Below are positions 5,972 through 27,342 of a stretch of 32,000 bases of DNA, piece after piece; the stretch's first letter is position 1, and each line of letters starts with the position of its first letter. Origin of the DNA: Thermoproteus tenax Kra 1 (GTDB taxonomy: Archaea > Thermoproteota > Thermoprotei > Thermoproteales > Thermoproteaceae); contig NC_016070.1 in NCBI RefSeq assembly GCF_000253055.1, positions 510,001 to 542,000 on the forward strand. Reading direction: 5' to 3'. The translations under genes and the position numbers were made by a program. Below the pieces are notes generated by a model. It was not told where the DNA came from. It saw only the letters and a list, made by a program, of their open reading frames with translations, and searched no databases.

Positions 5972-6014
5972 ATGACTCCCTCCCCGCCCTAGAGGGCGAG
6001 GCCTTCGGTTGTAA
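5972..6014 (-). repeat. conserved hairpin element, copy a
   Basis: The plus strand reads atgactccctCCCCGCCCtagaGGGCGAGGccttcggttgtaa (stem 5982-5989 / 5994-6001). On the minus strand it folds as CCUCGCCC/GGGCGGGG with one U-G wobble. It lies about 15 nt downstream of the stop of the minus-strand GINS-like gene. Confidence 0.8.
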
Positions 6015-9959: not shown

Positions 9960-10235
9960 ATGGCCGAAGAGGTCAAAGTCTTGGCCACAAGGGAGTACAG
10001 AATAAGTCTCAGAAGGGCCTACTACGCCGCCCGTACGCGCAGGGCGAGGAGGGCAGTGGCGTTAATCAGAGAGTTTGTATCGAGGCATATCAAGGTGGAC
10101 CCAAAGAGTGTAAAGCTTGATCCGGCCCTCAACGAGTTCGTCTGGTCGAGGAGCCGGGAGAAGCCGCCTAGATACGTCGACGTAGTTGTGGAGAAGCGTA
10201 GCGACGGCACCGCTCTAGTCAAGCTCAAGCAGTAA
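9960..10235 (+). CDS. rpl31e: 50S ribosomal protein L31e (eL31)
   Basis: [23 protein letters not shown]...[17 protein letters not shown], typical of L31e. ATG 9960 is preferred over the track's TTG 9948. Confidence 0.85.
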
Positions 10236-10585
10236 TGGATCCAATAAAGGCGCTACGGTACCGGTTCACTAGGTATTGTGTAAATAGGGCCTACGTCAAC
10301 ATAGACCTATCAAACAAGTCGGCTGAGTTCATCAACTTCCTTGACGACCTAGTGGAGGACATCAGGGATTTGGAGAAGGTCCTAGAGGAGGATCCCTCCA
10401 AGATCGACGAAATATTCACAGTCACCCTGTTGGAAAAGTTCAATGAGCTCAAAGAGAGGGATAGAGAGGTCGCCAAAGCTTTCTTCAGCAATATTCTGAG
10501 AAACTGCCTAGATCTTGAGGAAGTAGCCGAGAGCCCTCTGGGAAGAACCATATACGAGCTCTTGGCCAAGATCGAGCAAAGTTGA
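10235..10585 (+). CDS. hypothetical acidic helical protein (116 aa)
   Basis: The ATG overlaps the rpl31e stop (TAATG at 10233-10237). GC is about 50%, below the background. No motif recognised. Confidence 0.5.
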   Translation: MDPIKALRYRFTRYCVNRAYVNIDLSNKSAEFINFLDDLVEDIRDLEKVLEEDPSKIDEIFTVTLLEKFNELKERDREVAKAFFSNILRNCLDLEEVAESPLGRTIYELLAKIEQS

Positions 10586-10605
10586 TTTTAAAGATGAGAC
10601 TGTAA

Positions 10606-11826
10606 GTGCGGACGCTGTTGCAGGCTCCCCCAGGTTTCGGCAAAACTCGAATCCTGGCCCGCCTTGCCGTTAGGACTGGGGCAAAAACGGTGTTCTTCGT
10701 CCGATCCCATGGGGAGGCTCTACAGGCCCACCGCTATATCTCCGAGCTCGGCGGCCGCGCATCGCTCGCCTTCGGTCGTGCAACCTTGTGTAAATATGGA
10801 GCTAGAACTCTGGGCGACTGTATATCTTTAAGGGAGAGGGGCATCTGTAAAGTAAAATATAAATACATAAATAAAATATTTTATAATTTTGAAGAAATAT
10901 ATAAAGAGAAAATATGTCCATATGAATATTTTCAATCTATAAGTAGACAAGGCAATATTACGATATTGCCAATGTCATATTTAGAGAGCCAAGAGTACTT
11001 GGCTGGGGTGGCCGACTTAATCAGAGAGAGCGAGCTCGTGATAATAGATGAATTTCACAACGTGCTCCTTAATGATCTGACCGCGGAGAGGGATCTGCCA
11101 TCAAGCGCCTACTGTGATTATGGGCTGAAGCGGTGCCTCCTGATGCCGTTTCTAAGGGAGCTGATAGGGGATAGAGATCTCTTTGCGACCACAGCGTCTA
11201 TACCAGAAAAATTTTCAGAGATATTTGTAAATTTCTTTAGTTTAGAATATATAAATAAAGATAATATTTTTTATGAAAATTTAATAATTGATATTTTTCC
11301 AATAAAAATAAGATATAATAATAGAAATAAAAATCAAATTATTAATATAATTTATAAAATAGTTTCAAAAATATTCAATGACTATAAAAAATTAATTATA
11401 TTTATACCTAATAAAAGCCTCTTGAGCTACTATAAGGCCAAGTTCAAGCATCTCCCCGTGTCTGAAGTCCCATTGGGGGATGTTCCCCAAGTGATTTTGA
11501 CCTACTATAACAGCCCTCTTTCCGAGGGCCTTAATATAGATGTGGATTCAGCCGTCCTAATAGGTTTTCCCTTCCCCAATATAACAGATAAATGGCTTAA
11601 AATAAAAATAAATTTTATTGAAAAACTTGGATATAATGGATTTAAATATGTTTATCTTTTCGCTGCTGTCAGCTCCGCAATTCAGGCGATGGGTAGAGCC
11701 ATGCGCGAGCTAGATAGGCGCGTCAAATACATAGCTGCTATCGATGACAGGTTCTGGCACTACCGCAACTATATGCCCGATTGGTTCAAAAGGACGGCCG
11801 TACTGAGGGATGCTCCCAGTTTATGA
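10606..11826 (+). CDS. minimal XPD/Rad3/DinG-family SF2 helicase with a putative Fe-S Cys cluster
   Basis: 406 aa. Motifs seen: Walker A QAPPGFGKT; four Cys (C-x9-C-x8-C-x22-C, ending in CPYEYF) between motifs I and II; motif II IIDEFHN; motif IV-like LIIFIPNKSLL; motif V SPLSEGLNIDVDSAVLIGFPFPN; motif VI QAMGRAMRE. It is much shorter than canonical XPD and contains three AT-rich in-frame patches. Confidence 0.75.
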   Translation: MRTLLQAPPGFGKTRILARLAVRTGAKTVFFVRSHGEALQAHRYISELGGRASLAFGRATLCKYGARTLGDCISLRERGICKVKYKYINKIFYNFEEIYKEKICPYEYFQSISRQGNITILPMSYLESQEYLAGVADLIRESELVIIDEFHNVLLNDLTAERDLPSSAYCDYGLKRCLLMPFLRELIGDRDLFATTASIPEKFSEIFVNFFSLEYINKDNIFYENLIIDIFPIKIRYNNRNKNQIINIIYKIVSKIFNDYKKLIIFIPNKSLLSYYKAKFKHLPVSEVPLGDVPQVILTYYNSPLSEGLNIDVDSAVLIGFPFPNITDKWLKIKINFIEKLGYNGFKYVYLFAAVSSAIQAMGRAMRELDRRVKYIAAIDDRFWHYRNYMPDWFKRTAVLRDAPSL

Positions 11827-11831
11827 CATCG

Positions 11832-11866
11832 CAAACGGCAAGCCTCGCCCTTAAGGGCGAGGGTGA
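11832..11866 (+). repeat. conserved hairpin element, copy e
   Basis: caaacggcaagCCTCGCCCttaaGGGCGAGGgtga: a perfect 8 bp palindromic stem (11843-11850 / 11855-11862). The element begins 6 nt after the helicase stop codon (11824-11826); the stem itself begins 17 nt after it. Confidence 0.8.
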
Positions 11867-11884
11867 ATTTAAGCATCTATATTT
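11866..11884 (+). promoter_or_regulatory. TATA-like region upstream of the island operon
   Basis: aatttaagcatctatattttt lies between hairpin copy e and ATG 11888. It is the only AT-rich stretch before the GC-rich block. Confidence 0.4.
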
Positions 11885-11887
11885 TTC

Positions 11888-12313
11888 ATGGCGGAGCTAG
11901 TGAAGACAGCGAGAGGGGGGAGCAGGGGCGAGCCCCAACGAGGGGCGGCCCAGCGGTGGATGGGGCGGCCCAGACTAAGGGCGTCCTGGAGGACGGGGGA
12001 GGGGCGCTGCGGATATACGGCGATCGGAGGGCCCGCCGGGATGCTCCGGGAGGCCGCGCCGGAGGTCTACGCGGGCTATCCCAAATGCGCGGCGTATGAG
12101 GGGCTGAGCGAGTACAGAGCCGACGTCTGGGGCCGCCGAAGGCCTCTGCAGAGGCCTGGGGAGGCGCTGGCCGGGCGCTGGATAGGGCTGTACGTCGAGG
12201 GCGGATGCAGCACGTCCACGCCGAGAGGGATAGAGGCGTGCCGCCCGGCGTCGGGCGGGTCAACCACGAGGGGGGACAACGGGCGAGGTCGCAACGGTGC
12301 GGATCCCGCATGA
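11888..12313 (+). CDS. GC-rich (about 75%) ORF encoding a Gly/Arg-rich 141 aa product; coding status uncertain
   Basis: This frame shows codon-like periodicity (G-rich first position, G/C third position). Its stop overlaps the ATPase start as ATGA (12310-12313). However, other frames on both strands also carry long ORFs here because stop codons are rare at this GC, and the product is R/G/P-rich. Confidence 0.35.
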   Translation: MAELVKTARGGSRGEPQRGAAQRWMGRPRLRASWRTGEGRCGYTAIGGPAGMLREAAPEVYAGYPKCAAYEGLSEYRADVWGRRRPLQRPGEALAGRWIGLYVEGGCSTSTPRGIEACRPASGGSTTRGDNGRGRNGADPA

Positions 12314-13224
12314 GCGGGGATGGGGTCGTAGACCTCTTGCTTCTCCCGCTGGTGCTTCTGTTGATCTTGACACTACTCTGGAGGGAGGGCGAGGTCTTAA
12401 TAGGCATCGGAGGCGCTGGATTACTATATCTGCCTCTAGATAAACATATAACGATAATTGGTCCCACTAGGTCGGGTAAGACGAGGCTCGCGAAAAAGAT
12501 AGCAAAGCGGTCTGGCGCAAAGGTCATAGTACTTGACTGGAATGGGGAGTATGATCTAGGGCTGAGGGTCAAGGCCCAAAACCTAAAAATTAATATAAGT
12601 AAATTAAATAAAAAAATATTGGTAGAGCTAATTGGATTATCTATAAATTTAAATGAACCATCAATTTATTTTATGTATAGAGCAATTAGAGATTACCAGA
12701 TAAAGAGCCCCCGGGACCTTATTAGGGCGTTGGACTCCTATTTGACTACGACGAAGAGCGAGACTGAGATGAAGGCTGCAATACTTAGGCGCTTGGAGTA
12801 CGTCTTCGATATAATTAGTAATGGAAAAATAAATGTAGAGAAAATAGTCAAAAGCCGTAGGAGCTTCACGATCGATCTCTCAGACTTATCCCTTGTGGAG
12901 GAAAAGGTTCTTATATCTTCATTGATTTTAACATACATATATAATTACTTTCGAAAATCAAATATAAGTAAAAAAATAAAATTGATAATCATAATGGAGG
13001 AGTCTCAAAACTTAGTCAATGCGGCAATAATTCGACACCTGTTCGCAGAGATCGCAAAATATGGAGTACGTGTGGTCATGGTATCAAACGTGATACCTCC
13101 CCCTGAGATGATCGTGCATTCAAACGTAGTTATTGTGAAGCCGCATACACTATATGATTTAAAAATAAATAAATCTTCAATAATAATAAATGATAAAATA
13201 TATAGAGTTTATAAATTTTTATGA
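12310..13224 (+). CDS. membrane-anchored HerA/FtsK-like (DUF87-type) P-loop ATPase
   Basis: About 304 aa. It has an N-terminal hydrophobic helix VVDLLLLPLVLLLILTLLW, Walker A IIGPTRSGKT, the HerA-like VIVLDWNGEY segment and Walker B LIIIMEESQN. ATG 12310 is preferred over the track's 12205, which lies in the GC-rich block. Confidence 0.7.
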   Translation: MSGDGVVDLLLLPLVLLLILTLLWREGEVLIGIGGAGLLYLPLDKHITIIGPTRSGKTRLAKKIAKRSGAKVIVLDWNGEYDLGLRVKAQNLKINISKLNKKILVELIGLSINLNEPSIYFMYRAIRDYQIKSPRDLIRALDSYLTTTKSETEMKAAILRRLEYVFDIISNGKINVEKIVKSRRSFTIDLSDLSLVEEKVLISSLILTYIYNYFRKSNISKKIKLIIIMEESQNLVNAAIIRHLFAEIAKYGVRVVMVSNVIPPPEMIVHSNVVIVKPHTLYDLKINKSSIIINDKIYRVYKFL

Positions 13225-13436
13225 TAAAATCAAATTATAAGAAAATATATGAACAAATTATAAAAATACTAGAGGAATTGAACGTAGATATAGAGGAGCT
13301 TTCGCCCTGTGAAATATATCTAAATTATTTAAATTATAAGCTTTCATATATAGAAAGAATTCTTTATAATTTAATGGAAAAAATTAATTTTATTGAAAAT
13401 AGATGTGATAAGAATAGAAAAGAAATATATAAATAG
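13221..13436 (+). CDS. hypothetical small helical protein (71 aa), very AT-rich
   Basis: ATGA overlap with the ATPase stop (13221-13224). The composition is K/N/I/Y/E-rich. Confidence 0.45.
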   Translation: MIKSNYKKIYEQIIKILEELNVDIEELSPCEIYLNYLNYKLSYIERILYNLMEKINFIENRCDKNRKEIYK

Positions 13437-13447
13437 TACTTATATTA

Positions 13448-13819
13448 TTGAGCAATATGGAGGGCTTTCGTACAATTTACAAATACTCTGAGAAACTAGA
13501 CTCCTATGCAATAAAAAGAATCATTATTAAATTTTTGCAAGATCAAACTAAAAATGCAAAGGGAAATCTTATAACATTTAGGCCATCTAAAATCGCCCAA
13601 GATTTAAGCATATACAGCCGAAAGGATGTCCGCGCTAAGACTGTGATGATTAGAGGATTTTTGGACGAGCTAGTCCACCGCGGCTACATTGCCGTCATCA
13701 AAAGGAGCGCTCGGGGCAAGGTGTACGGCCTCTATAGAAGCGGAAAGCTGTGGGACCTCTTAGACAAATACGAGACAGATAAAGTCCTCGAGATCTTGGA
13801 GTCGGAAAAGCTACAATAA
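13448..13819 (+). CDS. putative winged-helix DNA-binding protein
   Basis: 123 aa. The segment FRPSKIAQDLSI...VMIRGFLDELVHRGYIAVIKRSARGKVYGLY resembles helix-turn-helix plus a beta wing. ATG 13457 is an alternative start. Confidence 0.5.
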   Translation: MSNMEGFRTIYKYSEKLDSYAIKRIIIKFLQDQTKNAKGNLITFRPSKIAQDLSIYSRKDVRAKTVMIRGFLDELVHRGYIAVIKRSARGKVYGLYRSGKLWDLLDKYETDKVLEILESEKLQ

Positions 13820-13854
13820 TTGCTTCCAATTTATTCTCAGAAGTTTTTTCTACA

Positions 13855-14832
13855 GTGTCCTACGGCGGCCGAGCGATCGAGGAGAGTCCAACTGAGGATA
13901 AATCTATTATAAATTTATTAAGATCTAAAAAGTTAGATAAAGTCTTAATATTAACAGAACTTCGTAAAATTGTACAGAGAGATAAATATAATGTAGCAAT
14001 TGTTGGGGTCTGGAGCAAGGGGCGTCTTGTCGAGCCCCGCGAGTTCAAGATAAACCCAGTGGTGCTACTATTGCCTTTCATCATCTCGATACCGCCCACG
14101 TTGATACTACATCATTTATACTTCCAGATGATCTCAGGCATCTCTGCAATAATATCTAGTAATATATTTATATTTTTTTATTTAAAAAATAAATGTATAA
14201 TTCCTGATTATATTACAATAATAAAAACAAATTATAACGATTTTGAATTTTTAAGGAAAAACAAAGAGAGGATTTTGGCCGATCCCGAGATCTTGGGCAC
14301 CGAGTTTGAGGTCTACCACTTCAAGCCGAAGAACTTATGCTTAGTCAAAGATAAGGCTGCTAACGCCATGGCCTATGAGTCCCCTATGGGGAGGCTCATC
14401 GTCGTCACCACCGGCCTTGTGGCCAAGCTGGCGCCAGAGGAGTTGGAGGCCGCCCTGAGGCACGAGGAGGGCCACATCAAATATAGACATATGTATAAAC
14501 TCATGGCCTTCCTTATCAGTGAATATATCCTAAGGGTCTATCTGCTGAACCTAGTATATACTAACATCTCATTCTACCTCATCGGGATCCATCTGTTGGG
14601 GGCCTCCCTGCTCTATACCTCCCTCGTCAGGCTCTACGAGTATGAGGCCGATAAATACGCAGCATCTCCACACTTGGCCAGAGCGTTGCTCAAAATAGAT
14701 TGGAACAATATGGTTGATGATGTATTACATCCGATTTACTCAAGGCTCAGATTTCTGGTGAAAACTCACCCTAATACGTTGGATAGAGTAGTGAGGATAT
14801 GGACTTTATCAGAGATCTCGCCAAAGCGTTAG
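13855..14832 (+). CDS. membrane-bound M48-family (HtpX/BlaR1-like) Zn metalloprotease
   Basis: 325 aa. It has HEEGH in ...ELEAALRHEEGHIKYRH, a downstream EYEADKYA (the third-ligand Glu motif of M48) and a C-terminal THPNTLDRVVRI. Hydrophobic TM stretches lie before and between the motifs. GTG start, with an AT-rich aatttattc about 23 nt upstream. Confidence 0.75.
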   Translation: MSYGGRAIEESPTEDKSIINLLRSKKLDKVLILTELRKIVQRDKYNVAIVGVWSKGRLVEPREFKINPVVLLLPFIISIPPTLILHHLYFQMISGISAIISSNIFIFFYLKNKCIIPDYITIIKTNYNDFEFLRKNKERILADPEILGTEFEVYHFKPKNLCLVKDKAANAMAYESPMGRLIVVTTGLVAKLAPEELEAALRHEEGHIKYRHMYKLMAFLISEYILRVYLLNLVYTNISFYLIGIHLLGASLLYTSLVRLYEYEADKYAASPHLARALLKIDWNNMVDDVLHPIYSRLRFLVKTHPNTLDRVVRIWTLSEISPKR

Positions 14833-15167
14833 CCGAACTGGACAGACTCTCAAGGAGGTACGACGATAGAGAGCTGAGCGAGGTGGTGCAACGCGTGATG
14901 GAACAGATGGGCGCGCTCATCGAGATCTTGGGAAGGCTGTCTGGCGTCTACGAGGAAATGGAGATCATAATGAAGGGCCTTCTGCGGTTGGACACGCCTG
15001 TTCTACACGATATCGAGCTTAAGGACGGCGAGGATCTCCCCTCGTTCTTTGAGAGAGCCCGCGGAGCTGGCGCAGATCCAAACAGAGTGCTCGCCTATCT
15101 TTTGGGCATCAATAAGGCGAAGCTATCTGTAGAGGGCCAGAGGGTCGTGATAAGGCTTAGGCGTTAG
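14799..15167 (+). CDS. hypothetical protein (122 aa)
   Basis: ORF with ordinary composition and background GC. It overlaps the protease 3' end by 34 nt. No motif recognised. Confidence 0.5.
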   Translation: MDFIRDLAKALAELDRLSRRYDDRELSEVVQRVMEQMGALIEILGRLSGVYEEMEIIMKGLLRLDTPVLHDIELKDGEDLPSFFERARGAGADPNRVLAYLLGINKAKLSVEGQRVVIRLRR

Positions 15168-15205
15168 TTATAACCGCCTCCGCGCCTTAAAGGGCGATGC
15201 TAGTT

Positions 15206-15250
<45 letters not shown>

Positions 15251-15301
15251 TTTTAAAAGGGGGCCTAAGTCCGCTCCGTGGTATATCCGATAAAGACGTT
15301 G

Positions 15302-15454
15302 ATGGTGGGGCGGTGCCACAGATGCGGGAGGAGGCTCTACCTCTACGAGGATAGATATCTGTGTAAAAAGACTGGCCACCTATTCTGTGAAGTCTGCGCC
15401 AAGAAATATCAATACAGATGTCCTAATGGCGTCGACCAGCTCGAGAGGATCTGA
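15302..15454 (+). CDS. small Cys-rich zinc-finger protein (50 aa)
   Basis: Not in the ORF track. My translation is MVGRCHRCGRRLYLYEDRYLCKKTGHLFCEVCAKKYQYRCPNGVDQLERI, with CxxC...C-x4-H-x2-C-x2-C...C spacing. Confidence 0.45.
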   Translation: MVGRCHRCGRRLYLYEDRYLCKKTGHLFCEVCAKKYQYRCPNGVDQLERI

Positions 15455-15896
15455 AGTCCTCCTCTCTGTGGTCTCTAGCCCCTTCGTTAAATCAGTCTCG
15501 ATTTTCGCCGGCGATAAGGCGTTTCTGACGCAGTACTACAAAGAAACCAAGAGCGTCTATTCGGCCGTAGTTGAAAAGGGCAGAGAGACCCGCATCGACG
15601 ATGAGGAGCTGTTGAGGGCCAGTAGAATTCTAGTGAGGTTGATGGCTATGGTCGGCAAAGCCGTGAAGTCCAGATACTATTCCTTCACGGGAACTCTCGT
15701 TTTGGGCGACGAGCTTGTCTTCAGGCCCTACGTATCGCCCACGTCGACAGCCAGAGTACGTATAAGGGGGCACGATATATTAGTCGATGCCGGCGAGGCG
15801 TTAAGGAAAAAGATAAAGACGAAGACAGATATCGAGGCCGCAGTCAGGAGGATATTGGAGTTGCTCCGTGATGAGACCAGGCTGGACGATAGATGA
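15426..15896 (+). CDS. hypothetical protein (about 156 aa)
   Basis: ORF with ordinary composition. ATG 15426 (MASTSSRG...) is preferred over the track's 15387. No motif recognised. Confidence 0.45.
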   Translation: MASTSSRGSEVLLSVVSSPFVKSVSIFAGDKAFLTQYYKETKSVYSAVVEKGRETRIDDEELLRASRILVRLMAMVGKAVKSRYYSFTGTLVLGDELVFRPYVSPTSTARVRIRGHDILVDAGEALRKKIKTKTDIEAAVRRILELLRDETRLDDR

Positions 15897-18000: not shown

Positions 18001-18489
18001 GTGGTGTCACCGTTCCGCATCGTGGAGACTCCTTGGAGGTACAAATACATCGTCAGCTCTGTTGCCGCTCGATCTAACAGCTGTTTCTTCTGTGAATATA
18101 TACAAGATCCAGGACGCGACCGCGAGAACTTGGTGTTCTTCAGGGGGAAGTACTCCATAGGCTTGCTCAACAGATACCCCTACACCTGGGGGCACGTCAT
18201 GGTGGCCCCCTATAGACATCTGAGGGATTTGGCCGAGCTGAGCCCCGAGGAGCTGGCCGGGCTGATAAGGGAGACCTATATGATCAAGAGGGCAGTCGCA
18301 TCTTTGACCAAGTGTCAAGACATCCTCATGGGCGTCAACGTCGGAAGGGCCGCCGGAGCTGGCGTCGAGGCTCATGTACATATACATATAATACCCACTT
18401 GTCAGACCATAGATCCAAATATTGAGCCGGATAGGCTAGAGGAGCTACTGAAGGAGTACAGGGATAAGCTATCTAGGCTATGGAGCTGA
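18001..18489 (+). CDS. HIT-family (histidine triad) nucleotide hydrolase/transferase
   Basis: CFFCEYI..., GHVMVAPYRH and the triad motif AHVHIHIIP. Confidence 0.85.
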   Translation: MVSPFRIVETPWRYKYIVSSVAARSNSCFFCEYIQDPGRDRENLVFFRGKYSIGLLNRYPYTWGHVMVAPYRHLRDLAELSPEELAGLIRETYMIKRAVASLTKCQDILMGVNVGRAAGAGVEAHVHIHIIPTCQTIDPNIEPDRLEELLKEYRDKLSRLWS

Positions 18490-19529
18490 GAAGGCTCTGC
18501 GTCAGCGGCTTCAAAGCCTACGATAGATGTATAGACCTAGAGGGGAGCACATTGATATACGGCCCTCCCAACTCCGGCAAGTCCTCGCTCCTCGAGGGAC
18601 TCTCCATGTTGATGCAGAGCAGGGGGGAGCAGTGGATTCTGCTCGAGGGGCCCTTGCTCATTGTACATGAGGCTGAAGACGTACACAGAGGGGGCGATGT
18701 CGCCTCCCCGTTCACAATAGAGGCCCATTGGAGCTTCGGCGAAAGGATATACGGCTACAGCTACACCTATGCCACAAAGGGGGGCTACGTGGAACAGACG
18801 GTGTTTGAGGACTTCAAGCCCGTCTTGACAGTGGCGAAGAGGGGCCAGAGGGGCGCCGTTATCTATCCGCCCGACTTATCAGCGGAGCTGTGCACTGCGC
18901 CGTACGCAGTCTTGAACGAAGACGTGTTGATACCGTGCGGCGAAGTTGCAGACGAGAGATTCAAGATGGCGGAGAGGATATTGCTCGAGCTGAGAGTCGG
19001 GCTCAAGGACACGTTCTATTACATCAGCGGGAGGAGGCTCGCCGCATGGAAGTACACCTACGAGACGCACGTGGATCTACTGCCGGCGACCAGCGTGGGG
19101 CCCGAGGGGCAGTACACTGTGCACCAGATCTCCCGCATACTGGCGCATCCTCAGTTCGAGCCCCTACGAGATGAGCTGTACAGAGTGTTGAGACAAGCGG
19201 GCATAGATGATGTTAGAGTGGGGCTCATCTCCACGGGGAGACTGGCCATGTACGTTAAATCGAGGGGGGGCTGGACAAATGCCTATAACGTAGGCAACTT
19301 CACGAAGTCTGTCTTGCCCGTCCTAGTACAGCTCGTATTGTCAAACGAGGGCTCCGTTGTGGCGATCGACGATGTGGATCTGGCTGTGCCGGAGGAACAT
19401 GCCGAGGGCCTCTTGTCGATATATCTGGACATAGCCAAGAGGAGGGGGCTTCAGCTGGTAATGGCCGCGAGATCTAGATCCTTCAAAGAGGCAGCGCGTA
19501 GATTGAACGCCACAGTTGTCGAGCTTTGA
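18480..19529 (+). CDS. ABC/SMC-like (AAA_15/21-type) ATPase
   Basis: 349 aa. N-terminal LRRLCVSGFKAY...LIYGPPNSGKSSLLEGL (Walker A in a RecF/SMC-like context) and Walker B GSVVAIDDVDLAV near the C-terminus. The start overlaps the HIT gene by 10 nt. Confidence 0.7.
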   Translation: MELRRLCVSGFKAYDRCIDLEGSTLIYGPPNSGKSSLLEGLSMLMQSRGEQWILLEGPLLIVHEAEDVHRGGDVASPFTIEAHWSFGERIYGYSYTYATKGGYVEQTVFEDFKPVLTVAKRGQRGAVIYPPDLSAELCTAPYAVLNEDVLIPCGEVADERFKMAERILLELRVGLKDTFYYISGRRLAAWKYTYETHVDLLPATSVGPEGQYTVHQISRILAHPQFEPLRDELYRVLRQAGIDDVRVGLISTGRLAMYVKSRGGWTNAYNVGNFTKSVLPVLVQLVLSNEGSVVAIDDVDLAVPEEHAEGLLSIYLDIAKRRGLQLVMAARSRSFKEAARRLNATVVEL

Positions 19530-19867
19530 AGATAGTGACAGATACCTCGTCGCTCGTCTACCTCGTCGAGAGGAGGCTAGGCCTAGGACCTCTCGAGGAA
19601 CACGTCGTCTTCGTGCCGTATCCCGTCTTGGAGGAACTCTTGGCGCTTGCGCCCTTTAGGCGTAACTTTCGCGTCGCTCTGAGACTGGTGAGAGTACTGG
19701 GCCCCTTTGTGGCGGAGGGCAGGGGCTCCGCCGATGAGGCGCTATTGAGCGCGGCGGCCAAGCTGGGCGCCGCAGTCTTGACGGGCGACAGGCAGATAGT
19801 CGCTGAGGCCAAGAGAAGGGGTATCCCGGTCGCTCTGCTCCACGATAGGGAGATAGTGGTAGTATAG
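19526..19867 (+). CDS. PIN-domain nuclease
   Basis: 113 aa with MKIVTDTSSLVYL (N-terminal acidic Asp) and a distal AVLTGDRQIV, giving a PIN-like layout. The TTG start overlaps the ATPase stop (TTGA at 19526-19529). Confidence 0.65.
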   Translation: MKIVTDTSSLVYLVERRLGLGPLEEHVVFVPYPVLEELLALAPFRRNFRVALRLVRVLGPFVAEGRGSADEALLSAAAKLGAAVLTGDRQIVAEAKRRGIPVALLHDREIVVV

Positions 19868-21485: not shown

Positions 21486-24200
21486 GTGTGGGAGGAGGTA
21501 CCCACTCTGTTGATAGCGGCTGCGGCAATCATTTTGGCCATAGCGGCAGTCGTGCTCGGCTACTTCAACCCCCAGGCTCCCGCAGACTACGCATACGCCG
21601 AGGTGGCCCCCATCGTTAAACCGTACAATTCGACGTTCGTCTACATAGGCGCAGTGGGCCGCAACGCCACTGTGACCGAGGTGTCGTACATATACGGCGG
21701 CAGAACCTACACGTTCGCCGTCGACAGACTCGCTCCCCCCCCCCCCCCCAACGGGACATGGCTCGCGGTGGTTCCGTGCGGGGCGAACGTCACCGTCGTC
21801 GCGAGGTACGGCGTAGCCACAAGGGCGCAGACCTGGACTCCCGTGTGTATAAATAGGCCGCAGAAGGTCGTGAGCTACAGCGAGGAGGCCATCAGGGAGC
21901 TTACGGAGTTCGCCAGCTTTGTGGCTCAGTACACGCTCTACAAGTCGATACCTGTGTTGGGCGCATACCTCCGTTTTGGCTCAGTGGAGACGTGGATAAA
22001 GAACATAGGCCCGTTCCCCTACTGGGCAGCCATACCGTCGCGCAATATACCCACTCTCATACTAGAGCCGGGCGAGGGCTTCAGGCTGGACGACTTCACA
22101 ACAACCGTCACCGGCACAGTGTACCGCTGGGTCTACACAGCCGGCATACTTGAGGGCAACCGCCTCACCCTATGGATAAACGGCGTACTCGCCTATAACG
22201 GCACAGTGACCAACGGCATGACGATATATGCGCCGCAGGGATATGAGCTAAAATACATCAACGGCTATCTGGTACCCATCTATAACGGCGCTCCGATCTA
22301 TAATGGCACTTCAGTCAAGAGCAACACCAGCAATACGGTGATCTATAAAACAACGATCAAAGGCTCAGTGATATCTACGCCGCAGGGGTACAACGTAACA
22401 ATAATATTGAGCACGCCCCTTGGTATCGCCTATTTCTATAACGGCACGGCGATATATACGTCACAGGGGTACGAGATAACAATCGACGTACCTCTTCTCA
22501 CCCGCATCCACTCCGGACCACCGGTCGTCGGATCGCCGATCGGTGGATCACCAGTTGGTAACACTGGCAGTGGAGCATCACAGCCCATGATAATATGTAA
22601 CGTGATGATATATGCGTCATCGTATACGCCATCGAATTCTCCAACCTATGTGGCGATACCTGCGAACGGAAGCTGGATGGGCTGGCTCAAATTCGATAAT
22701 GCCCCACTGCCGGTTTCGCCGTTGAGCGAAACGTTGAACATATACGTCATGCCCTCCTCGCCCAATTACACAAGCTCCCTCTTCGGCCTCATACCGCCGT
22801 GGAGGACGTACATGCTCACCGTGAACCCCACGACCGGCGAGGCCTCCTGGTACGACCCCCAGTGCAACGCGATTAACTACTCATGCCTCCGCACAGCCTA
22901 TGTCTCGAACAACTCCGTCCTCTATATAAACGACATGCCGGGCGGGGAGGTGGTGGCCATCGGGAAGTACTTCGTGGTGGGAGTCGGACAGCTAGTGTCG
23001 TATCGGGATACCTATGGCAACGTCCATTATGGAGTCACTATACTGTGGTATCCGTGGGGCGGCGCCAGAGAAGTTATAAATGATGGTAACTCGTTGTGGA
23101 ATGATTTCGGCAACGGCCTCTACACGTGTTACTATAGCGCCTATTACCCAGACCAAAATATTGTGTTCTTCGATGGATTTGAGAGAAACAGCTATACCGT
23201 GGTCTGTGCGATTGGAGGACTGTGGATACAGGGCGGCCTCTTTGGGGGACAGCATGTTGTATCGTTTACTGCCACAGCCTATCCCAACTACACTCTGGTA
23301 GTTACAGAAAACGGCAAAGAGATAGGCTCTGTTACATTCAACCCGAGCCAGTTCCCGCCAGCCCCGCCTATGTTCGTGACATATTCGAAGCCCGCGTCGA
23401 ACTCGCTCCCTGTGGCCGTCCGGTTTGGATCAGACAACTACGTCCAGCTTGTGCCGTTCACCGATAGCAATACTTACGCAGGCTATATCTCCGATGCCAC
23501 CGGCAACTACGGCCTCGGCACGCTCATCTACAAACAGACGTACGACCTCACCGGCGCGTACAATTACACCCTAGTTTTGCAGGGCTATGAATCAAGAAGA
23601 CTCATTAAGACGTATAGGGAGTACGGCGAAGTCGATATACCCCTCAATTTTGTACCTGCAGGTCCTCAGGTCACGATTCAATACAATGGAAAGTGGATAA
23701 CTTGTCCTGTTAAAGTGAAATATTCCCCTGGTAGTATATATCCTCAATACTACTGTGCAATGTATGGATATTATAATGTCTATGTCTATAACATCACTGT
23801 AGTCGAGCAATTGACGCTATACCTCTTCGGGAAGCCTGTCGCGTACGACGCCCTTATGGGCTCTTACGTGTACACTACAGAGACGCCGGTTCCTGTGAGA
23901 CCGCTACAAATAACGATAAAGCCGATCTGTACCCCCACGAAGAGATTGCTTGGCGGAGCTGCGGTGTCCCGATTGGAGGGCAATAATACGTTGGTGACGT
24001 ACTTCAACGAGACGATACAGGTGACCGGATGCGGGCAGGACTACACGTATTATGAGCCCGTGAAGGTCGCTACCTCTATGGTAAACGGTGCAGACTACGT
24101 TAGGGATCCCTACACCGGCCAGCTGTGCAGTTATCCGTATACGACGCAGGATAATCAAACTGGTTGGCTAACTTGCAATAACGGGCGGAGACCAACCTAA
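21486..24200 (+). CDS. large N-terminally membrane-anchored surface glycoprotein candidate
   Basis: 904 aa with an N-terminal hydrophobic helix TLLIAAAAIILAIAAVVLGYF. It is rich in Y, T, N, G and V, with about 19 N-x-S/T sequons by hand count. Short recurring motifs are present (PQGYELKY, PQGYNVTI, SQGYEITI, IYNGA/IYNGT). Confidence 0.7.
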   Translation: MWEEVPTLLIAAAAIILAIAAVVLGYFNPQAPADYAYAEVAPIVKPYNSTFVYIGAVGRNATVTEVSYIYGGRTYTFAVDRLAPPPPPNGTWLAVVPCGANVTVVARYGVATRAQTWTPVCINRPQKVVSYSEEAIRELTEFASFVAQYTLYKSIPVLGAYLRFGSVETWIKNIGPFPYWAAIPSRNIPTLILEPGEGFRLDDFTTTVTGTVYRWVYTAGILEGNRLTLWINGVLAYNGTVTNGMTIYAPQGYELKYINGYLVPIYNGAPIYNGTSVKSNTSNTVIYKTTIKGSVISTPQGYNVTIILSTPLGIAYFYNGTAIYTSQGYEITIDVPLLTRIHSGPPVVGSPIGGSPVGNTGSGASQPMIICNVMIYASSYTPSNSPTYVAIPANGSWMGWLKFDNAPLPVSPLSETLNIYVMPSSPNYTSSLFGLIPPWRTYMLTVNPTTGEASWYDPQCNAINYSCLRTAYVSNNSVLYINDMPGGEVVAIGKYFVVGVGQLVSYRDTYGNVHYGVTILWYPWGGAREVINDGNSLWNDFGNGLYTCYYSAYYPDQNIVFFDGFERNSYTVVCAIGGLWIQGGLFGGQHVVSFTATAYPNYTLVVTENGKEIGSVTFNPSQFPPAPPMFVTYSKPASNSLPVAVRFGSDNYVQLVPFTDSNTYAGYISDATGNYGLGTLIYKQTYDLTGAYNYTLVLQGYESRRLIKTYREYGEVDIPLNFVPAGPQVTIQYNGKWITCPVKVKYSPGSIYPQYYCAMYGYYNVYVYNITVVEQLTLYLFGKPVAYDALMGSYVYTTETPVPVRPLQITIKPICTPTKRLLGGAAVSRLEGNNTLVTYFNETIQVTGCGQDYTYYEPVKVATSMVNGADYVRDPYTGQLCSYPYTTQDNQTGWLTCNNGRRPT
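21735..21749 (+). repeat. C15 homopolymer tract (encodes five Pro in frame)
   Basis: 15 consecutive C inside ORF 21486..24200, starting on a codon boundary (gct ccc x5 aac). Confidence 0.95.
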
Positions 24201-24215
24201 ATCAGCAAACAACGG

Positions 24216-24239
24216 TTTTTTACGCTCTCCCTCTTTTTT
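24216..24239 (+). terminator. two oligo-T tracts after the first surface-protein gene
   Basis: T6 at 24216-24221 and T6 at 24234-24239, between stop 24200 and ATG 24243. Oligo-T is the usual archaeal termination signal. Confidence 0.4.
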
Positions 24240-24242
24240 CTT

Positions 24243-26828
24243 ATGAGAACGTTGTTGCTAGCGATGTTGCTGACGGCGGCTCTGGCGCTGGCTACGACGT
24301 TCCAGATGTACGAGTTGGGCGGTCCGAGGCATCTCGTTTGGGTGACCATAAACGGGCAGACGGAGAACATATTGGCAGTTCTGCAGGAGTTCTGGCCGAA
24401 CACAGTGCTGTTCCCTGTAGGAGGTATCTACTGGCTCAACACCACGAACCCGACCGAGGCGAGGTACACCATCTTCCCTGCGTACGCCGTCTCACCGTGG
24501 CTCCCCAACGGCAGCCTCATCAATGTGACGTTCACGAGGGCCGAGGCGCTGTTCAACGTCTCCGGCGACCTCCTCAAGAGAGTGAGGTGGGGGATGTACA
24601 CCTTCATCTACAACATCGCCACCCAGGAGGGCACCAGCCCGGCGGAGATACTCCAGGAGCAGAACCCCTTCGTCTCATATGGGCTACAGGTCGTGCTGAA
24701 GGAGGAACCGCAGAAGCCGATACTGGACTGCTTGAGCTACGTGGGGAACAACAGCCTGCCGAGCTTTTGGAGCAGTCCGGGGACGGTCTGGTCCCGCTAC
24801 CACATTCCGTTTAAGCTGTACAATGTGACCTGCCCGGGCAACACGTCATATATAGACATCATCGACGTGGAGTACCGCTGGTGGTACGACGGAGGGAGCA
24901 TGTTGTGCCTCGATTGGCTCTGGTTCAGGCAGAGGGAGTGGTACCTCTCGGGCGGAAGGTATGACATCTTCGGAATCTACCTCCCGAGGTGGGAGGCGCT
25001 GATAAACCAGACAGAACAGCTCTTCAGCGAGCTCTTCAGTGAATCCATTAAAACTACCAACCAAACGCTCAGCCAAGAGCTGTCGAACGAAGCGATACAG
25101 CTCATTTATAAATTACGTGCCATGGAGTCGGCCTCAGACTGCGTCAACTTCAGCGGACTCCCGAGGAACATCACGGCCGTCGTCGGAGGCGGGCATCTCA
25201 GGATCTACGTGGACGGCCAACTTATATGGACGTTGAACGTCTCCGGCGTCTTTATATCGCAGCCGTATTCGGCCGTCGACTGGTTCGGCCCATCTCTTAT
25301 GTCCGGCGCCTACTTCTACGTCGACGAGCCGGCGATGGCCACAGCCCCGCTGGGCTCAGCACTGCTGTTCATAGGGAACGACAGCGTCGTCGCCCCGCCC
25401 AAATACGCCACCAATCTGATATACAGCATCGTCTACTTAGTCGCCTCGACCTCCTTCAGCTGGGAGGGAGGGCTCTCGGTGGGCCCGGGCGAGACGAACG
25501 AGACGTACGTCTACGTCAGGCCGGACGTGAACGCCACGATATACGGCCGCCCCGCCCGCCTGCCCTACATGGCGATAATCTCGCTCGGCTGGCTCAGGGA
25601 GAGGTACTGCCCGTACGGCGACCTGGTCCTCTCGGGCGCGTACAGGAGGATAGGGGGCTCCATCGAGGTGCTGGGCCCCGTCTCTATATCGTGCACCGAG
25701 TACCCAGTGCGCTTCATACTGCCGAACGGCTCCTCGGTCCCGGTGGTCGCGAGGGCGAACTCCACCGTCCGCCTCCCGCCTCTGGCCGTGGACCTGGGCA
25801 ACGGGACGCGTTTGGTCACAGCCGAGGTGGAGGTCAACGCGACGGGCCCCGCGGACGTCGTAGTGCCCGTCGCCCAGCGCCTCTACCGCGTGGAGGTGGA
25901 GACGCCCGTCGGCGTAAACGCCACCTGGGCCCCGGCCGGCGCCGCGATTAAGCTGTCCACCGTAACGCTCCCCAACGGCACCCGGTACGTCCCCATCGCG
26001 CCTGTGGCCGTGAACGTGACCGGGCCGATCGCCGTTGCGCCTAGGTACGAGAGGCAGTACCTCGTCCGCCTCATAGCCCCGGCCAACTCCACGGAGGAGT
26101 GGGCGGACGAGGGGGCCCTCTTCAACGTAACGCTGGCCGACCCGTGGATAGTCGGAAACGGCACCATGTTCTCCGGCCTCCTCGTGAACGGGACCGGGGA
26201 GAGGAGCTGGCGCGTCGTAAAGCCGATAACGCTCGTGGCGGGCTACGCCGAGGTCTACTACTGGGTCTCCGTCGAAACGCCCGTCAACAGAACCGCGGGC
26301 TGGATGCCCAAGGGCGCGGTCCTCGCCTTCCCGGACGTCCTCGACCTCGGCAACGGGACGCGCCTCGTGGGCCCGTCAGTCCAGCGCGTGGTGGTGGAGG
26401 GGCCCGCCAACGTCTCGGTCGCGTACGCAGAGAGGCAGTACTACGTCCAGATAGAGGGCGTCGAGGAGTGGAGCGGGTGGGCCGACGCTGGCTCCGCGCT
26501 GAGGCTGAACTCCACCGTGGTGGACGGAGTGGTCTATAGGCCGCTGGAGGATGTGGTGGTCTCCCGCCCCGGCGTCTACAGGCCGGAGTTCCTCGCCTCC
26601 TACGCGCACGAGTTCAGAGACCTGCTGGGCGTCCCCGACCCGGCCGCGTCGGTGGAGCTCTGCGGCGTGAGGGCCGGCGCCGACCTGGCGGGGAGGGCGT
26701 ACGTGGAGGCCGAGACGGACCGCCTATGCGCGCCGGCTCTCTCGGCCTGGCCCGTCAGCCCGTACACGCTGGCCGCCGTCGCCGCGGCGGCCGCTGCCGC
26801 CTACGCTGCGATCAGGCGGAGGAGGTAG
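24243..26828 (+). CDS. large secreted surface glycoprotein candidate with C-terminal membrane anchor
   Basis: 861 aa. It has a signal-like N-terminus MRTLLLAMLLTAALALATT and a C-terminal PYTLAAVAAAAAAAYAAIRRRR (TM helix plus basic tail). I count about 30 N-x-S/T sequons by hand. The C-terminal half contains repeats of roughly 70-80 aa (Y.V.VETPV..N.TW...GA......LGNGTRLV....V.V.GP..V...Y.RQY). Confidence 0.75.
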   Translation: MRTLLLAMLLTAALALATTFQMYELGGPRHLVWVTINGQTENILAVLQEFWPNTVLFPVGGIYWLNTTNPTEARYTIFPAYAVSPWLPNGSLINVTFTRAEALFNVSGDLLKRVRWGMYTFIYNIATQEGTSPAEILQEQNPFVSYGLQVVLKEEPQKPILDCLSYVGNNSLPSFWSSPGTVWSRYHIPFKLYNVTCPGNTSYIDIIDVEYRWWYDGGSMLCLDWLWFRQREWYLSGGRYDIFGIYLPRWEALINQTEQLFSELFSESIKTTNQTLSQELSNEAIQLIYKLRAMESASDCVNFSGLPRNITAVVGGGHLRIYVDGQLIWTLNVSGVFISQPYSAVDWFGPSLMSGAYFYVDEPAMATAPLGSALLFIGNDSVVAPPKYATNLIYSIVYLVASTSFSWEGGLSVGPGETNETYVYVRPDVNATIYGRPARLPYMAIISLGWLRERYCPYGDLVLSGAYRRIGGSIEVLGPVSISCTEYPVRFILPNGSSVPVVARANSTVRLPPLAVDLGNGTRLVTAEVEVNATGPADVVVPVAQRLYRVEVETPVGVNATWAPAGAAIKLSTVTLPNGTRYVPIAPVAVNVTGPIAVAPRYERQYLVRLIAPANSTEEWADEGALFNVTLADPWIVGNGTMFSGLLVNGTGERSWRVVKPITLVAGYAEVYYWVSVETPVNRTAGWMPKGAVLAFPDVLDLGNGTRLVGPSVQRVVVEGPANVSVAYAERQYYVQIEGVEEWSGWADAGSALRLNSTVVDGVVYRPLEDVVVSRPGVYRPEFLASYAHEFRDLLGVPDPAASVELCGVRAGADLAGRAYVEAETDRLCAPALSAWPVSPYTLAAVAAAAAAAYAAIRRRR

Positions 26829-26864
26829 GAGGAGAGTCCTGCGTAGCAGCGCGTCAGAGCCGCC

Positions 26865-26882
26865 GAAAAACACGCGTTTTTC
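26865..26882 (+). terminator. hairpin plus T5 tract downstream of the second surface-protein gene
   Basis: GAAAAAC-acgc-GTTTTTC: a 7 bp stem whose 3' arm is a T5 run, 37 nt after stop 26828. Confidence 0.4.
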
Positions 26883-27094
26883 CTTCCGCCGAGATCCAGG
26901 GCCTCCCCATTTTTGGGTGGAGCTTGTGGTCGATGGGGAGCGGAAATTCCGCCTAGAGCCCGGCGGACTACGGGCGGCCCTGCGTCCGACATCCCGATAG
27001 GGCGGGGCAGCTCCCACTTTAATTTTGAAAACGTTCGCCAACGGCCACGGGCTCGGATAGTGAGGCCCGCAGGTTGCTCGGCGCTGGCTGGGCA

Positions 27095-27139
27095 GAAGGC
27101 CTCGCCCTTTAGGGCGGGGTCATTCGGTGAAATCTGGGC
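27095..27139 (+). repeat. conserved hairpin element, copy d
   Basis: gaaggCCTCGCCCtttaGGGCGGGGtcattcggtgaaatctgggcc (stem 27100-27107 / 27112-27119). It shares the extra flank tcggt.g.aatctgggc with copy c. Confidence 0.8.
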
Positions 27140-27312
27140 CTGCTCTCGCCCTCGATCTCATCGGCTTGGACAACGTCGTTCTGACCGGCCGACTCTATTC
27201 TCTTGGGATGTTTATGACCGCCACCTTGCTCCCAAGGGCGAGCTCCTCGGTACCACCTTGATTCGAGGAGAGACAAAACCTAGGAAATGTTGTCTCCCCT
27301 TGCGCGAAAGAA

Positions 27313-27324
27313 TTATATTTATAC
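27313..27324 (+). promoter_or_regulatory. TATA-like box for glmS
   Basis: ttatatttatac is centred about 25 nt upstream of ATG 27343. Confidence 0.5.
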
Positions 27325-27342
27325 CGACGCCACCTCCATAAC

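Follow-up and report, generated by a model that had tools for sequence, protein, structure and literature searches.

A helicase, HerA/VirD4-type ATPase, winged-helix protein and membrane protease encoded side by side in Thermoproteus tenax Kra1: an apparent core operon of the Thermoproteales

Why are the genes for a reduced XPD-like helicase, a HerA-like ATPase, a winged-helix protein and a membrane protease kept next to each other in Thermoproteus tenax Kra1? The genes in question, TTX_0586 to TTX_0593, lie in a 32,000-nucleotide stretch of DNA (the window; genome positions 510,001-542,000). Positions given here are those of the window, and adding 510,000 gives the coordinates used in Table S8 of the genome paper (PMC3189178). 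Judging from gene order and sequence similarity in related genomes, the block appears to be a real operon of six to seven genes that is vertically inherited across the Thermoproteales as part of the core gene set. The operon most likely encodes a membrane-associated complex for DNA unwinding and translocation under proteolytic control, and we give this tentative reading a probability of about 0.4. The parts are members of known superfamilies, and the combination corresponds to no named system.

The eight open reading frames (ORFs) of a preliminary description of this DNA were all found on the plus strand at the coordinates claimed beforehand. The couplings reported between them were also seen in the sequence: the start of the first gene overlaps the stop of the L31e gene as TAATG at 10235, ATGA overlaps occur at 12310 and 13221, and the protease gene and the last gene share 34 nt (14799-14832). 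One of the eight, ORF 11888-12313, belongs to an insert present only in T. tenax, so the block has seven conserved genes; the same ORF, counted among four small ORFs of the system, stems from an inserted repeat and lies outside it. The seven genes, called g1 to g7 below, are:

10235-10585, plus strand: g1 (TTX_0586, arCOG05696), helical protein of 116 amino acids
10606-11826, plus strand: g2 (TTX_0587), reduced XPD/Rad3-like helicase of superfamily 2 (SF2), 406 amino acids, with a four-Cys Fe-S cluster (predicted)
12310-13224, plus strand: g3 (TTX_0588, arCOG00285), HerA/VirD4-type P-loop ATPase, 304 amino acids
13221-13436, plus strand: g4 (TTX_0589), coiled-coil protein of 71 amino acids
13448-13819, plus strand: g5 (TTX_0591, arCOG05697), winged-helix protein of 123 amino acids
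13855-14832, plus strand: g6 (TTX_0592, arCOG01333), HtpX-like M48 zinc protease
14799-15167, plus strand: g7 (TTX_0593, arCOG05698), helical protein of 122 amino acids

Conservation was tested by tblastn of each T. tenax protein against fetched loci, among them 18 related loci (L001-L018). The order g1-helicase-ATPase-g4-winged helix-M48-g7 was identical in five of six Thermoproteus loci and in eight Pyrobaculum loci; in locus L008, g1 to g5 alone were seen. The gene upstream of the block is that of L31e in Thermoproteus and that of SurE in Pyrobaculum, and the next two genes downstream, g8 and g9, have the opposite orientation in Pyrobaculum, which places both outside the block. Because of this variation on both sides, we set the limits of the unit at 10235 and 15167. 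More distant loci, of the Vulcanisaeta type, were reached through a profile search with the ATPase, which found longer relatives. Vulcanisaeta thermophila and two related metagenome-assembled genomes have g1, helicase, ATPase, winged helix, M48 and a small ORF in this order, encoding a helicase of 527-544, an ATPase of 438-467, an M48 protein of 424-426 and a small protein of 132-147 amino acids. In L036, which represents another metagenome lineage, all six families are kept, with the genes for M48 and its small partner divergently oriented and with g1 on the opposite strand. Locus L019 has ATPase, winged helix, M48 and small ORF without the helicase, and a gene for a calcineurin-like phosphoesterase upstream. 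In L022 a related ATPase has as its partner an XPD of full length, HBB (Arch) domain included.

The helicase, ATPase, winged-helix and M48 genes are thus linked in Thermoproteus, Pyrobaculum, the Vulcanisaeta-type loci and L036, and since they are still neighbours after several rearrangements, the genes stay linked. The g1-helicase pair and the ATPase-winged helix-M48-g7 group behave like sub-modules, the ATPase being the element in common; where the operon is split, in Pyrobaculum oguniense, g1 remains beside the helicase. The small families g1, g5 and g7 were met in this gene context only. Genes for SurE, CTP synthase and deoxyhypusine synthase recur as housekeeping neighbours across genera. 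This synteny among housekeeping genes speaks against the label of an accessory module under which the block had been described, and also against its placement in a defence island, as the order is shared by Thermoproteus, Pyrobaculum and Vulcanisaeta-type genomes.

The helicase motifs and four-Cys cluster that had been read from a protein of only 406 amino acids are borne out by profile alignment. The protein scores above the Pfam thresholds of both DEAD_2 (28.7 bits, cutoff 21) and Helicase_C_2 (53.7 bits, cutoff 25.3), and a profile of nine sequences aligned with Sulfolobus tokodaii XPD (PDB 2vl7) at E 2.5e-23 in two blocks, residues 3-164 on XPD 29-198 and residues 238-386 on XPD 361-525. 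Cys62, Cys72, Cys81 and Cys104 are invariant in the nine sequences and align with the Fe-S region of XPD; the protein carries a predicted four-Cys 4Fe-4S domain. Like XPD/Rad3, g2 thus has both SF2 motor domains with the Fe-S domain inserted in the first, but it is 406 amino acids long against about 550-600. Between the aligned blocks it has about 70 residues in place of the Arch domain, which spans about 160 residues in XPD, and Pfam gives no HBB match. Its score against TIGR00604 (rad3) is 44.2 bits, under the cutoff of 246.95. T. tenax also encodes a separate, canonical 'XPD/Rad3-related' helicase of 589 amino acids, TTX_1449, in the same arCOG, and g2 is a paralogue of it. The family of g2 is tiny. 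An exhaustive HMMER search of 1.84 billion proteins gave 11 representatives at E <= 1e-30, beyond which the matches grade into general XPD/DinG helicases. For the evolution of XPD, the block shows the canonical enzyme, paired with the ATPase in a distant relative, reduced to a core of 400 amino acids. The small neighbour g1 shows, in its family alignment, the motif YRFxRYCVNxAY and two Cys, all invariant, and it matched its Vulcanisaeta homologue by hhalign with 99% probability (E 3e-18).

The ATPase matched Pfam DUF87 at E 2e-11 and has the Walker A motif GPTRSGKT and the segment LDWNGEY. Its AlphaFold model has a predicted local distance difference test (pLDDT) score of 91.7 and consists of a helix at residues 6-23 followed by the P-loop domain, in which residues 101-166 form a helical insertion; motifs and model helix agree with the earlier reading of a HerA-like ATPase with an N-terminal transmembrane helix. 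In a structure search the closest folds were DndH-C, HerA, TrwB and VirB4, DndH-C being the nearest solved fold (E 1e-11, template modelling score 0.69). Among curated families the top match was the DNA-import ATPase CedD (E 4.5e-20), and the score against the NCBIfam CedD model was 71.8 bits for a cutoff of 600. Pfam FtsK_SpoIIIE did not match the T. tenax ATPase, and matched the L022 relative weakly (E 1.7e-4). With HerA-NurA the protein shares the DUF87/HerA core and an associated DNA-processing partner, but it differs in having no HAS-barrel, since the modelled P-loop domain follows the N-terminal helix directly, and no NurA-like gene is found in the block. A separate HerA/NurA-like pair is encoded in T. 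tenax by TTX_0186 and TTX_0187. The coiled-coil gene g4 is kept in Thermoproteus and Pyrobaculum. In the longer Vulcanisaeta-type ATPases the additional length consists of a linker and a C-terminal coiled coil, to which g4 was aligned weakly by hhalign (62% probability, E 7e-5). We tentatively regard g4 as the counterpart of this fused coiled coil.

The model of g5 (pLDDT 83.4), compared by Foldseek, has winged-helix topology, as had been claimed, and its matches to winged-helix Pfam families are weak yet consistent. A profile search of PDB with g5 found nothing meaningful, and no repressor family was matched. By tblastn, identity was 86-94% across the Thermoproteus loci and 57-72% across those of Pyrobaculum, and by this measure g5 is the most conserved gene of the block. 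The protease passes Pfam M48 with 59.8 bits (cutoff 20.3), with HEEGH flanked by hydrophobic segments on both sides and EYEAD downstream, in agreement with its description as a membrane M48 protease. The motifs are kept in Vulcanisaeta and L036. The arrangement of HEXXH and a downstream Glu between hydrophobic segments resembles that of HtpX (M48) and BlaR1 (M56), but g6 falls below every HtpX equivalog cutoff in NCBIfam (best score 31.8 bits, cutoff 275), has no sensor domain and is encoded with DNA-related genes. For g7, positional counterparts occur in Vulcanisaeta and L036, with weak similarity (E about 0.01).

These comparisons establish which domains the proteins have, and that the genes' co-occurrence is conserved. 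That the products form a single complex, that DNA is its substrate and that it serves a housekeeping process, such as chromosome handling at the membrane or DNA processing for exchange, is what we infer. In such a complex, the reduced XPD-type helicase and its small partner g1 would open or track DNA, and the HerA/VirD4-type ring ATPase, usually tethered by one N-terminal hydrophobic helix and carrying g4 as a coiled-coil tail, would supply the force for translocation. The winged-helix protein may recognize DNA or a partner, and the HtpX-like protease together with g7 may regulate or process one of the components. This reading is favoured by the shared gene order, the sub-modules and the recurring housekeeping neighbours, by the ATPase folds, which are nearest to DNA translocases, by the match of the ATPase to the DNA-import family CedD, and by the alignment of the helicase to the motors and Fe-S domain of XPD. 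By its membrane anchor, ring ATPase and winged-helix DNA-recognition unit, the proposed complex would resemble FtsK/SpoIIIE; it differs in that the winged helix is a separate protein and that g3 has one N-terminal helix in place of a multi-pass anchor.

Several observations weigh against this reading. The Walker B segment of the ATPase (IIIMEESQN, 12997-13005) has Glu in place of a near-invariant Asp, most relatives having D-E-A-Q-N, and the N-terminal hydrophobic helix is absent in two Pyrobaculum loci. Motif II of the helicase (11047-11058) is DEFH in T. tenax and DEAH in relatives. Three of the small proteins match nothing: g1 gave nothing in Pfam and no meaningful match in a PDB profile search, g4 matches no described family, and g7 has no PDB or Pfam match in scans that, for Pfam, took in all members of its family. 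In P. oguniense the operon is split: g1 and helicase share one site, and the winged-helix gene is found at another. FtsK/HerA-type ATPases can move proteins too, for example in type VII secretion, and M48 proteases are not known to be components of DNA translocases. Finally, the reading is drawn from sequence comparison and structure models.

What would such a complex be for? The Thermoproteales have neither FtsZ nor ESCRT for division (PMC7617429), and a conserved operon that couples a helicase to a membrane ring ATPase is a candidate for a part in their division or in preparing DNA for exchange. A more specific version, which we consider doubtful, is a Thermoproteales-specific machine in which a membrane-tethered ring ATPase, an XPD-derived helicase, a winged-helix protein and a protease would move or clear chromosomal DNA at division, or would supply single-stranded DNA to the relaxase-less Ted system.

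The link to Ced or Ted raised in the preliminary description can also be drawn more directly, with the block as an unlinked accessory of Ted DNA exchange, a relaxosome-like unit that would process DNA and feed single strands to the Ted pore. CedD is the top curated match of the ATPase; its N-terminal membrane helix, HerA/FtsK-type domain and helical insertion are shared with VirD4, the coupling protein TrwB and CedD/TedD; and the phyletic range of the operon overlaps that of Ted. Archaeal transfer systems, moreover, have no known relaxase, and where their single-stranded DNA comes from is an open question (PMC9905601). However, the Ted loci of Thermoproteales already encode TedD, the CedD orthologue (PMC11823120), and the g3 ATPase is therefore not that component. 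Its score is far below the CedD cutoff, it has no pilin, VirB6-like or VirB4-like genes beside it, and neither the window nor the examined flanks of related loci contain a homologue of TedA, TedB, TedC, CedA or CedB. We regard an accessory role in Ted as unlikely.

Lineage-fixed antiviral defence, in which the HerA-like ATPase and the DinG/XPD-like helicase would sense or attack foreign DNA with the protease as effector or switch, is supported by similarity of the parts. PADLOC gave matches to type IV CasDinG (E 2.9e-29), to mad8 (E 1e-9) and to HerA models, and the nearest ATPase folds include DndH of the DndFGH system, TdpA and HerA of the Nezha (SIR2-HerA) system. These PADLOC matches are to single domains, and no complete system was called; together with the CedD score, this agrees with the preliminary view that the block is no named defence, conjugation or repair system. 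A literature search with the arCOG numbers and locus tags of the block found no mention of them. Unlike the HerA-type defence ATPases, g3 stands in a fixed core-genome context without a nuclease, a Sir2 protein or another known effector in the block. Its chromosomal position is fixed and its descent apparently vertical across an order, and the identity of g5 within the genus is unlike that of fast-evolving defence genes. A role in defence is, in our judgement, quite improbable.

The adjacency of g5 and g6 allows another scheme, a switch like BlaR1-BlaI or IrrE-DdrO, in which a signal from the helicase and ATPase would lead the M48 protease to cleave the winged-helix protein and so turn on a response to stress or DNA damage. 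The winged-helix gene lies directly 5' of the membrane zinc protease gene in all lineages but L036, where the protease gene is divergently placed, and the Vulcanisaeta protease has a weak match to M56 (BlaR1; E 0.002). But g6 lacks a sensor domain, g5 gave no match to a repressor family, and the extreme conservation of g5 suggests a structural role with several partners, so that we give the switch little credence. As little can be said for adjacent but independent housekeeping genes, namely paralogues of a repair helicase and of HerA, and a membrane protease for quality control. Each large protein comes from a broad family with stand-alone members and the operon is split in P. oguniense, but six families stay together through at least four arrangements, with g1, g5 and g7 found in this context only.

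The weakest candidate, an integrated element that came from a virus or plasmid and is now cryptic or domesticated, draws on the low GC (guanine plus cytosine) content of the block, which counts among just three extended low-GC regions in the genome, and on the HerA-like ATPases that archaeal mobile elements commonly carry (PMC4158269), but we hold it to be very improbable, as the block ORFs match no integrase family, the 32-kb window has no tRNA, no direct repeats were found flanking the block, profile scans of IMG/VR gave no relatives of the winged-helix protein and only Walker A/P-loop-local matches for the ATPase, synteny extends across genera, and the low GC is limited to Thermoproteus and patchy inside genes that have normal GC in Pyrobaculum.

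Two further features of the block, a GC-rich insert with palindromic repeats and a series of AT-rich patches, are not part of the seven conserved genes or lie within them:

11827-12309, unstranded: GC-rich insert, T. tenax only, 483 bp, holding ORF 11888-12313
11834-11862, plus strand: palindromic hairpin CCTCGCCCTTAAGGGCGAGG directly past the helicase stop, of a repeated intergenic element family
15165-15244, unstranded: tandem palindromes at the 3' end of the operon, two 36-nt units, then an AT-rich stretch before the next gene
10816-14285, unstranded: span of nine in-frame AT-rich patches, 'low G+C region 2' of the genome paper
10816-10988, 11188-11449, 11554-11675, 12557-12710 and 12792-12869: AT-rich patches 1-5
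12884-13033, 13114-13594, 13875-14008 and 14111-14285: AT-rich patches 6-9

The insert, of 71% GC, lies at the helicase/ATPase junction and is bounded by ATGA at each end. Five other Thermoproteus loci have this junction: three of them show the stop of the helicase gene and the start of the ATPase gene overlapping as ATGA, and L001 and L009 have GTGATG. The original annotation had a 511-bp gap at this site. The insert ORF encodes 141 amino acids (WP_052883092.1) and is without counterpart in the 18 related loci. Because it clusters at 90% with CCC81635.1, a protein encoded elsewhere in T. tenax that is a partial copy roughly 93% identical to it, we take the insert to be a repeated element with at least one further copy in the T. 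tenax genome. Copies outside T. tenax were not found by an exact-pattern scan of IMG/VR, nor in the metagenomes of the Joint Genome Institute by an exact-pattern scan or a protein scan. We also considered a structural RNA, and rejected it: there was no Rfam match at gathering thresholds, and the fold z-scores were -1.2 and -1.4. A permissive Rfam search gave only a weak 48-nt match at the hairpin, of 11816-11863 to the 3' end of sot0042 (23 bits, E 6e-4). A permuted signal recognition particle RNA was ruled out, this RNA being located between TTX_0683 and TTX_0684. At the start of the insert is a palindrome found again at several intergenic positions of the window. The repeat of about 50 nt, ctcccCGCCCTAAAGGGCGaggctttcggttgtaa, was seen at 5985, 11846, 15183, 15219, 20824 and 27103; it is 3' of genes at five of these six sites, the copy at 27103 lying inside the listed ORF 26913-27341. 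The two tandem 36-nt palindromic units occupy 15165-15236.

Genes g2 to g6 have the AT-rich patches within their frames, where GC goes down to 8% per 100 nt. The span is one of three extended low-G+C regions listed in the genome paper, without discussion there (PMC3189178). Within the window, 60-nt windows below 30% GC are almost confined to 10816-14285, with one exception of 67 nt at 23731-23797. GC at third codon positions (GC3) over 20 codons drops to 0.00 in g2, g3 and g6, the minimum in the other genes being 0.20 to 0.65, and the difference is seen among synonymous codons (patches versus rest: Ile 0.07 versus 0.47, Asn 0.12 versus 0.67). In all six Thermoproteus loci the operon has a GC of 0.43-0.45 and its flanks one of 0.56-0.60; the effect is faint in Pyrobaculum and there is hardly any in Vulcanisaeta-type loci. 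Some patches are common to all Thermoproteus; others are species-specific, at sites of similar protein sequence. The patches go together with the Thermoproteus-specific position of the operon directly behind ribosomal protein genes. Runs on the sense strand are of A in 22 cases and of T in 7, an excess that would fit avoidance of oligo-T terminators. A low-GC donor was rejected as their source, since the patch proteins are nearer to Pyrobaculum than to Vulcanisaeta and no known relative is equally AT-rich. The direction of substitution was examined by polarizing L001 against L009 with outgroups by parsimony. Third positions of the patches had 7 GC-to-AT and 27 AT-to-GC changes, which would imply an equilibrium GC3 of 0.32 in the patches and 0.64 outside, on small counts and with a parsimony that is biased. 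Extreme AT patches in conserved, essential-looking genes bear on mutation and selection in hyperthermophile genomes.

The block in T. tenax is surrounded by the following genes: primase, PCNA, TFS, S19e, a double-stranded DNA-binding protein, L39e and L31e on the 5' side, and a zinc-finger gene, NTP-transferase, HIT protein, Rpb7 and Spt4 on the 3' side. Farther along, between the Spt4 region and glmS, the interval 21486-27341 holds ORFs of 904 and 861 amino acids with no Pfam match and one of 142 amino acids. The 861-residue ORF has stretches of 68-73% GC, and Thermoproteus locus L001 has nothing at the position equivalent to this interval. At 18480-19867 an AAA_21/AAA_15-type ATPase gene is followed by that of a PIN-like protein, a pair whose synteny holds in both Thermoproteus and Pyrobaculum and which might be toxin-antitoxin-like or OLD-like. 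At 15278-15896 an ORF for a 58-residue zinc-finger protein, with weak FYVE/RING-like matches, overlaps the start of an ORF of 169 amino acids; this pair is conserved, and is inverted in Pyrobaculum.

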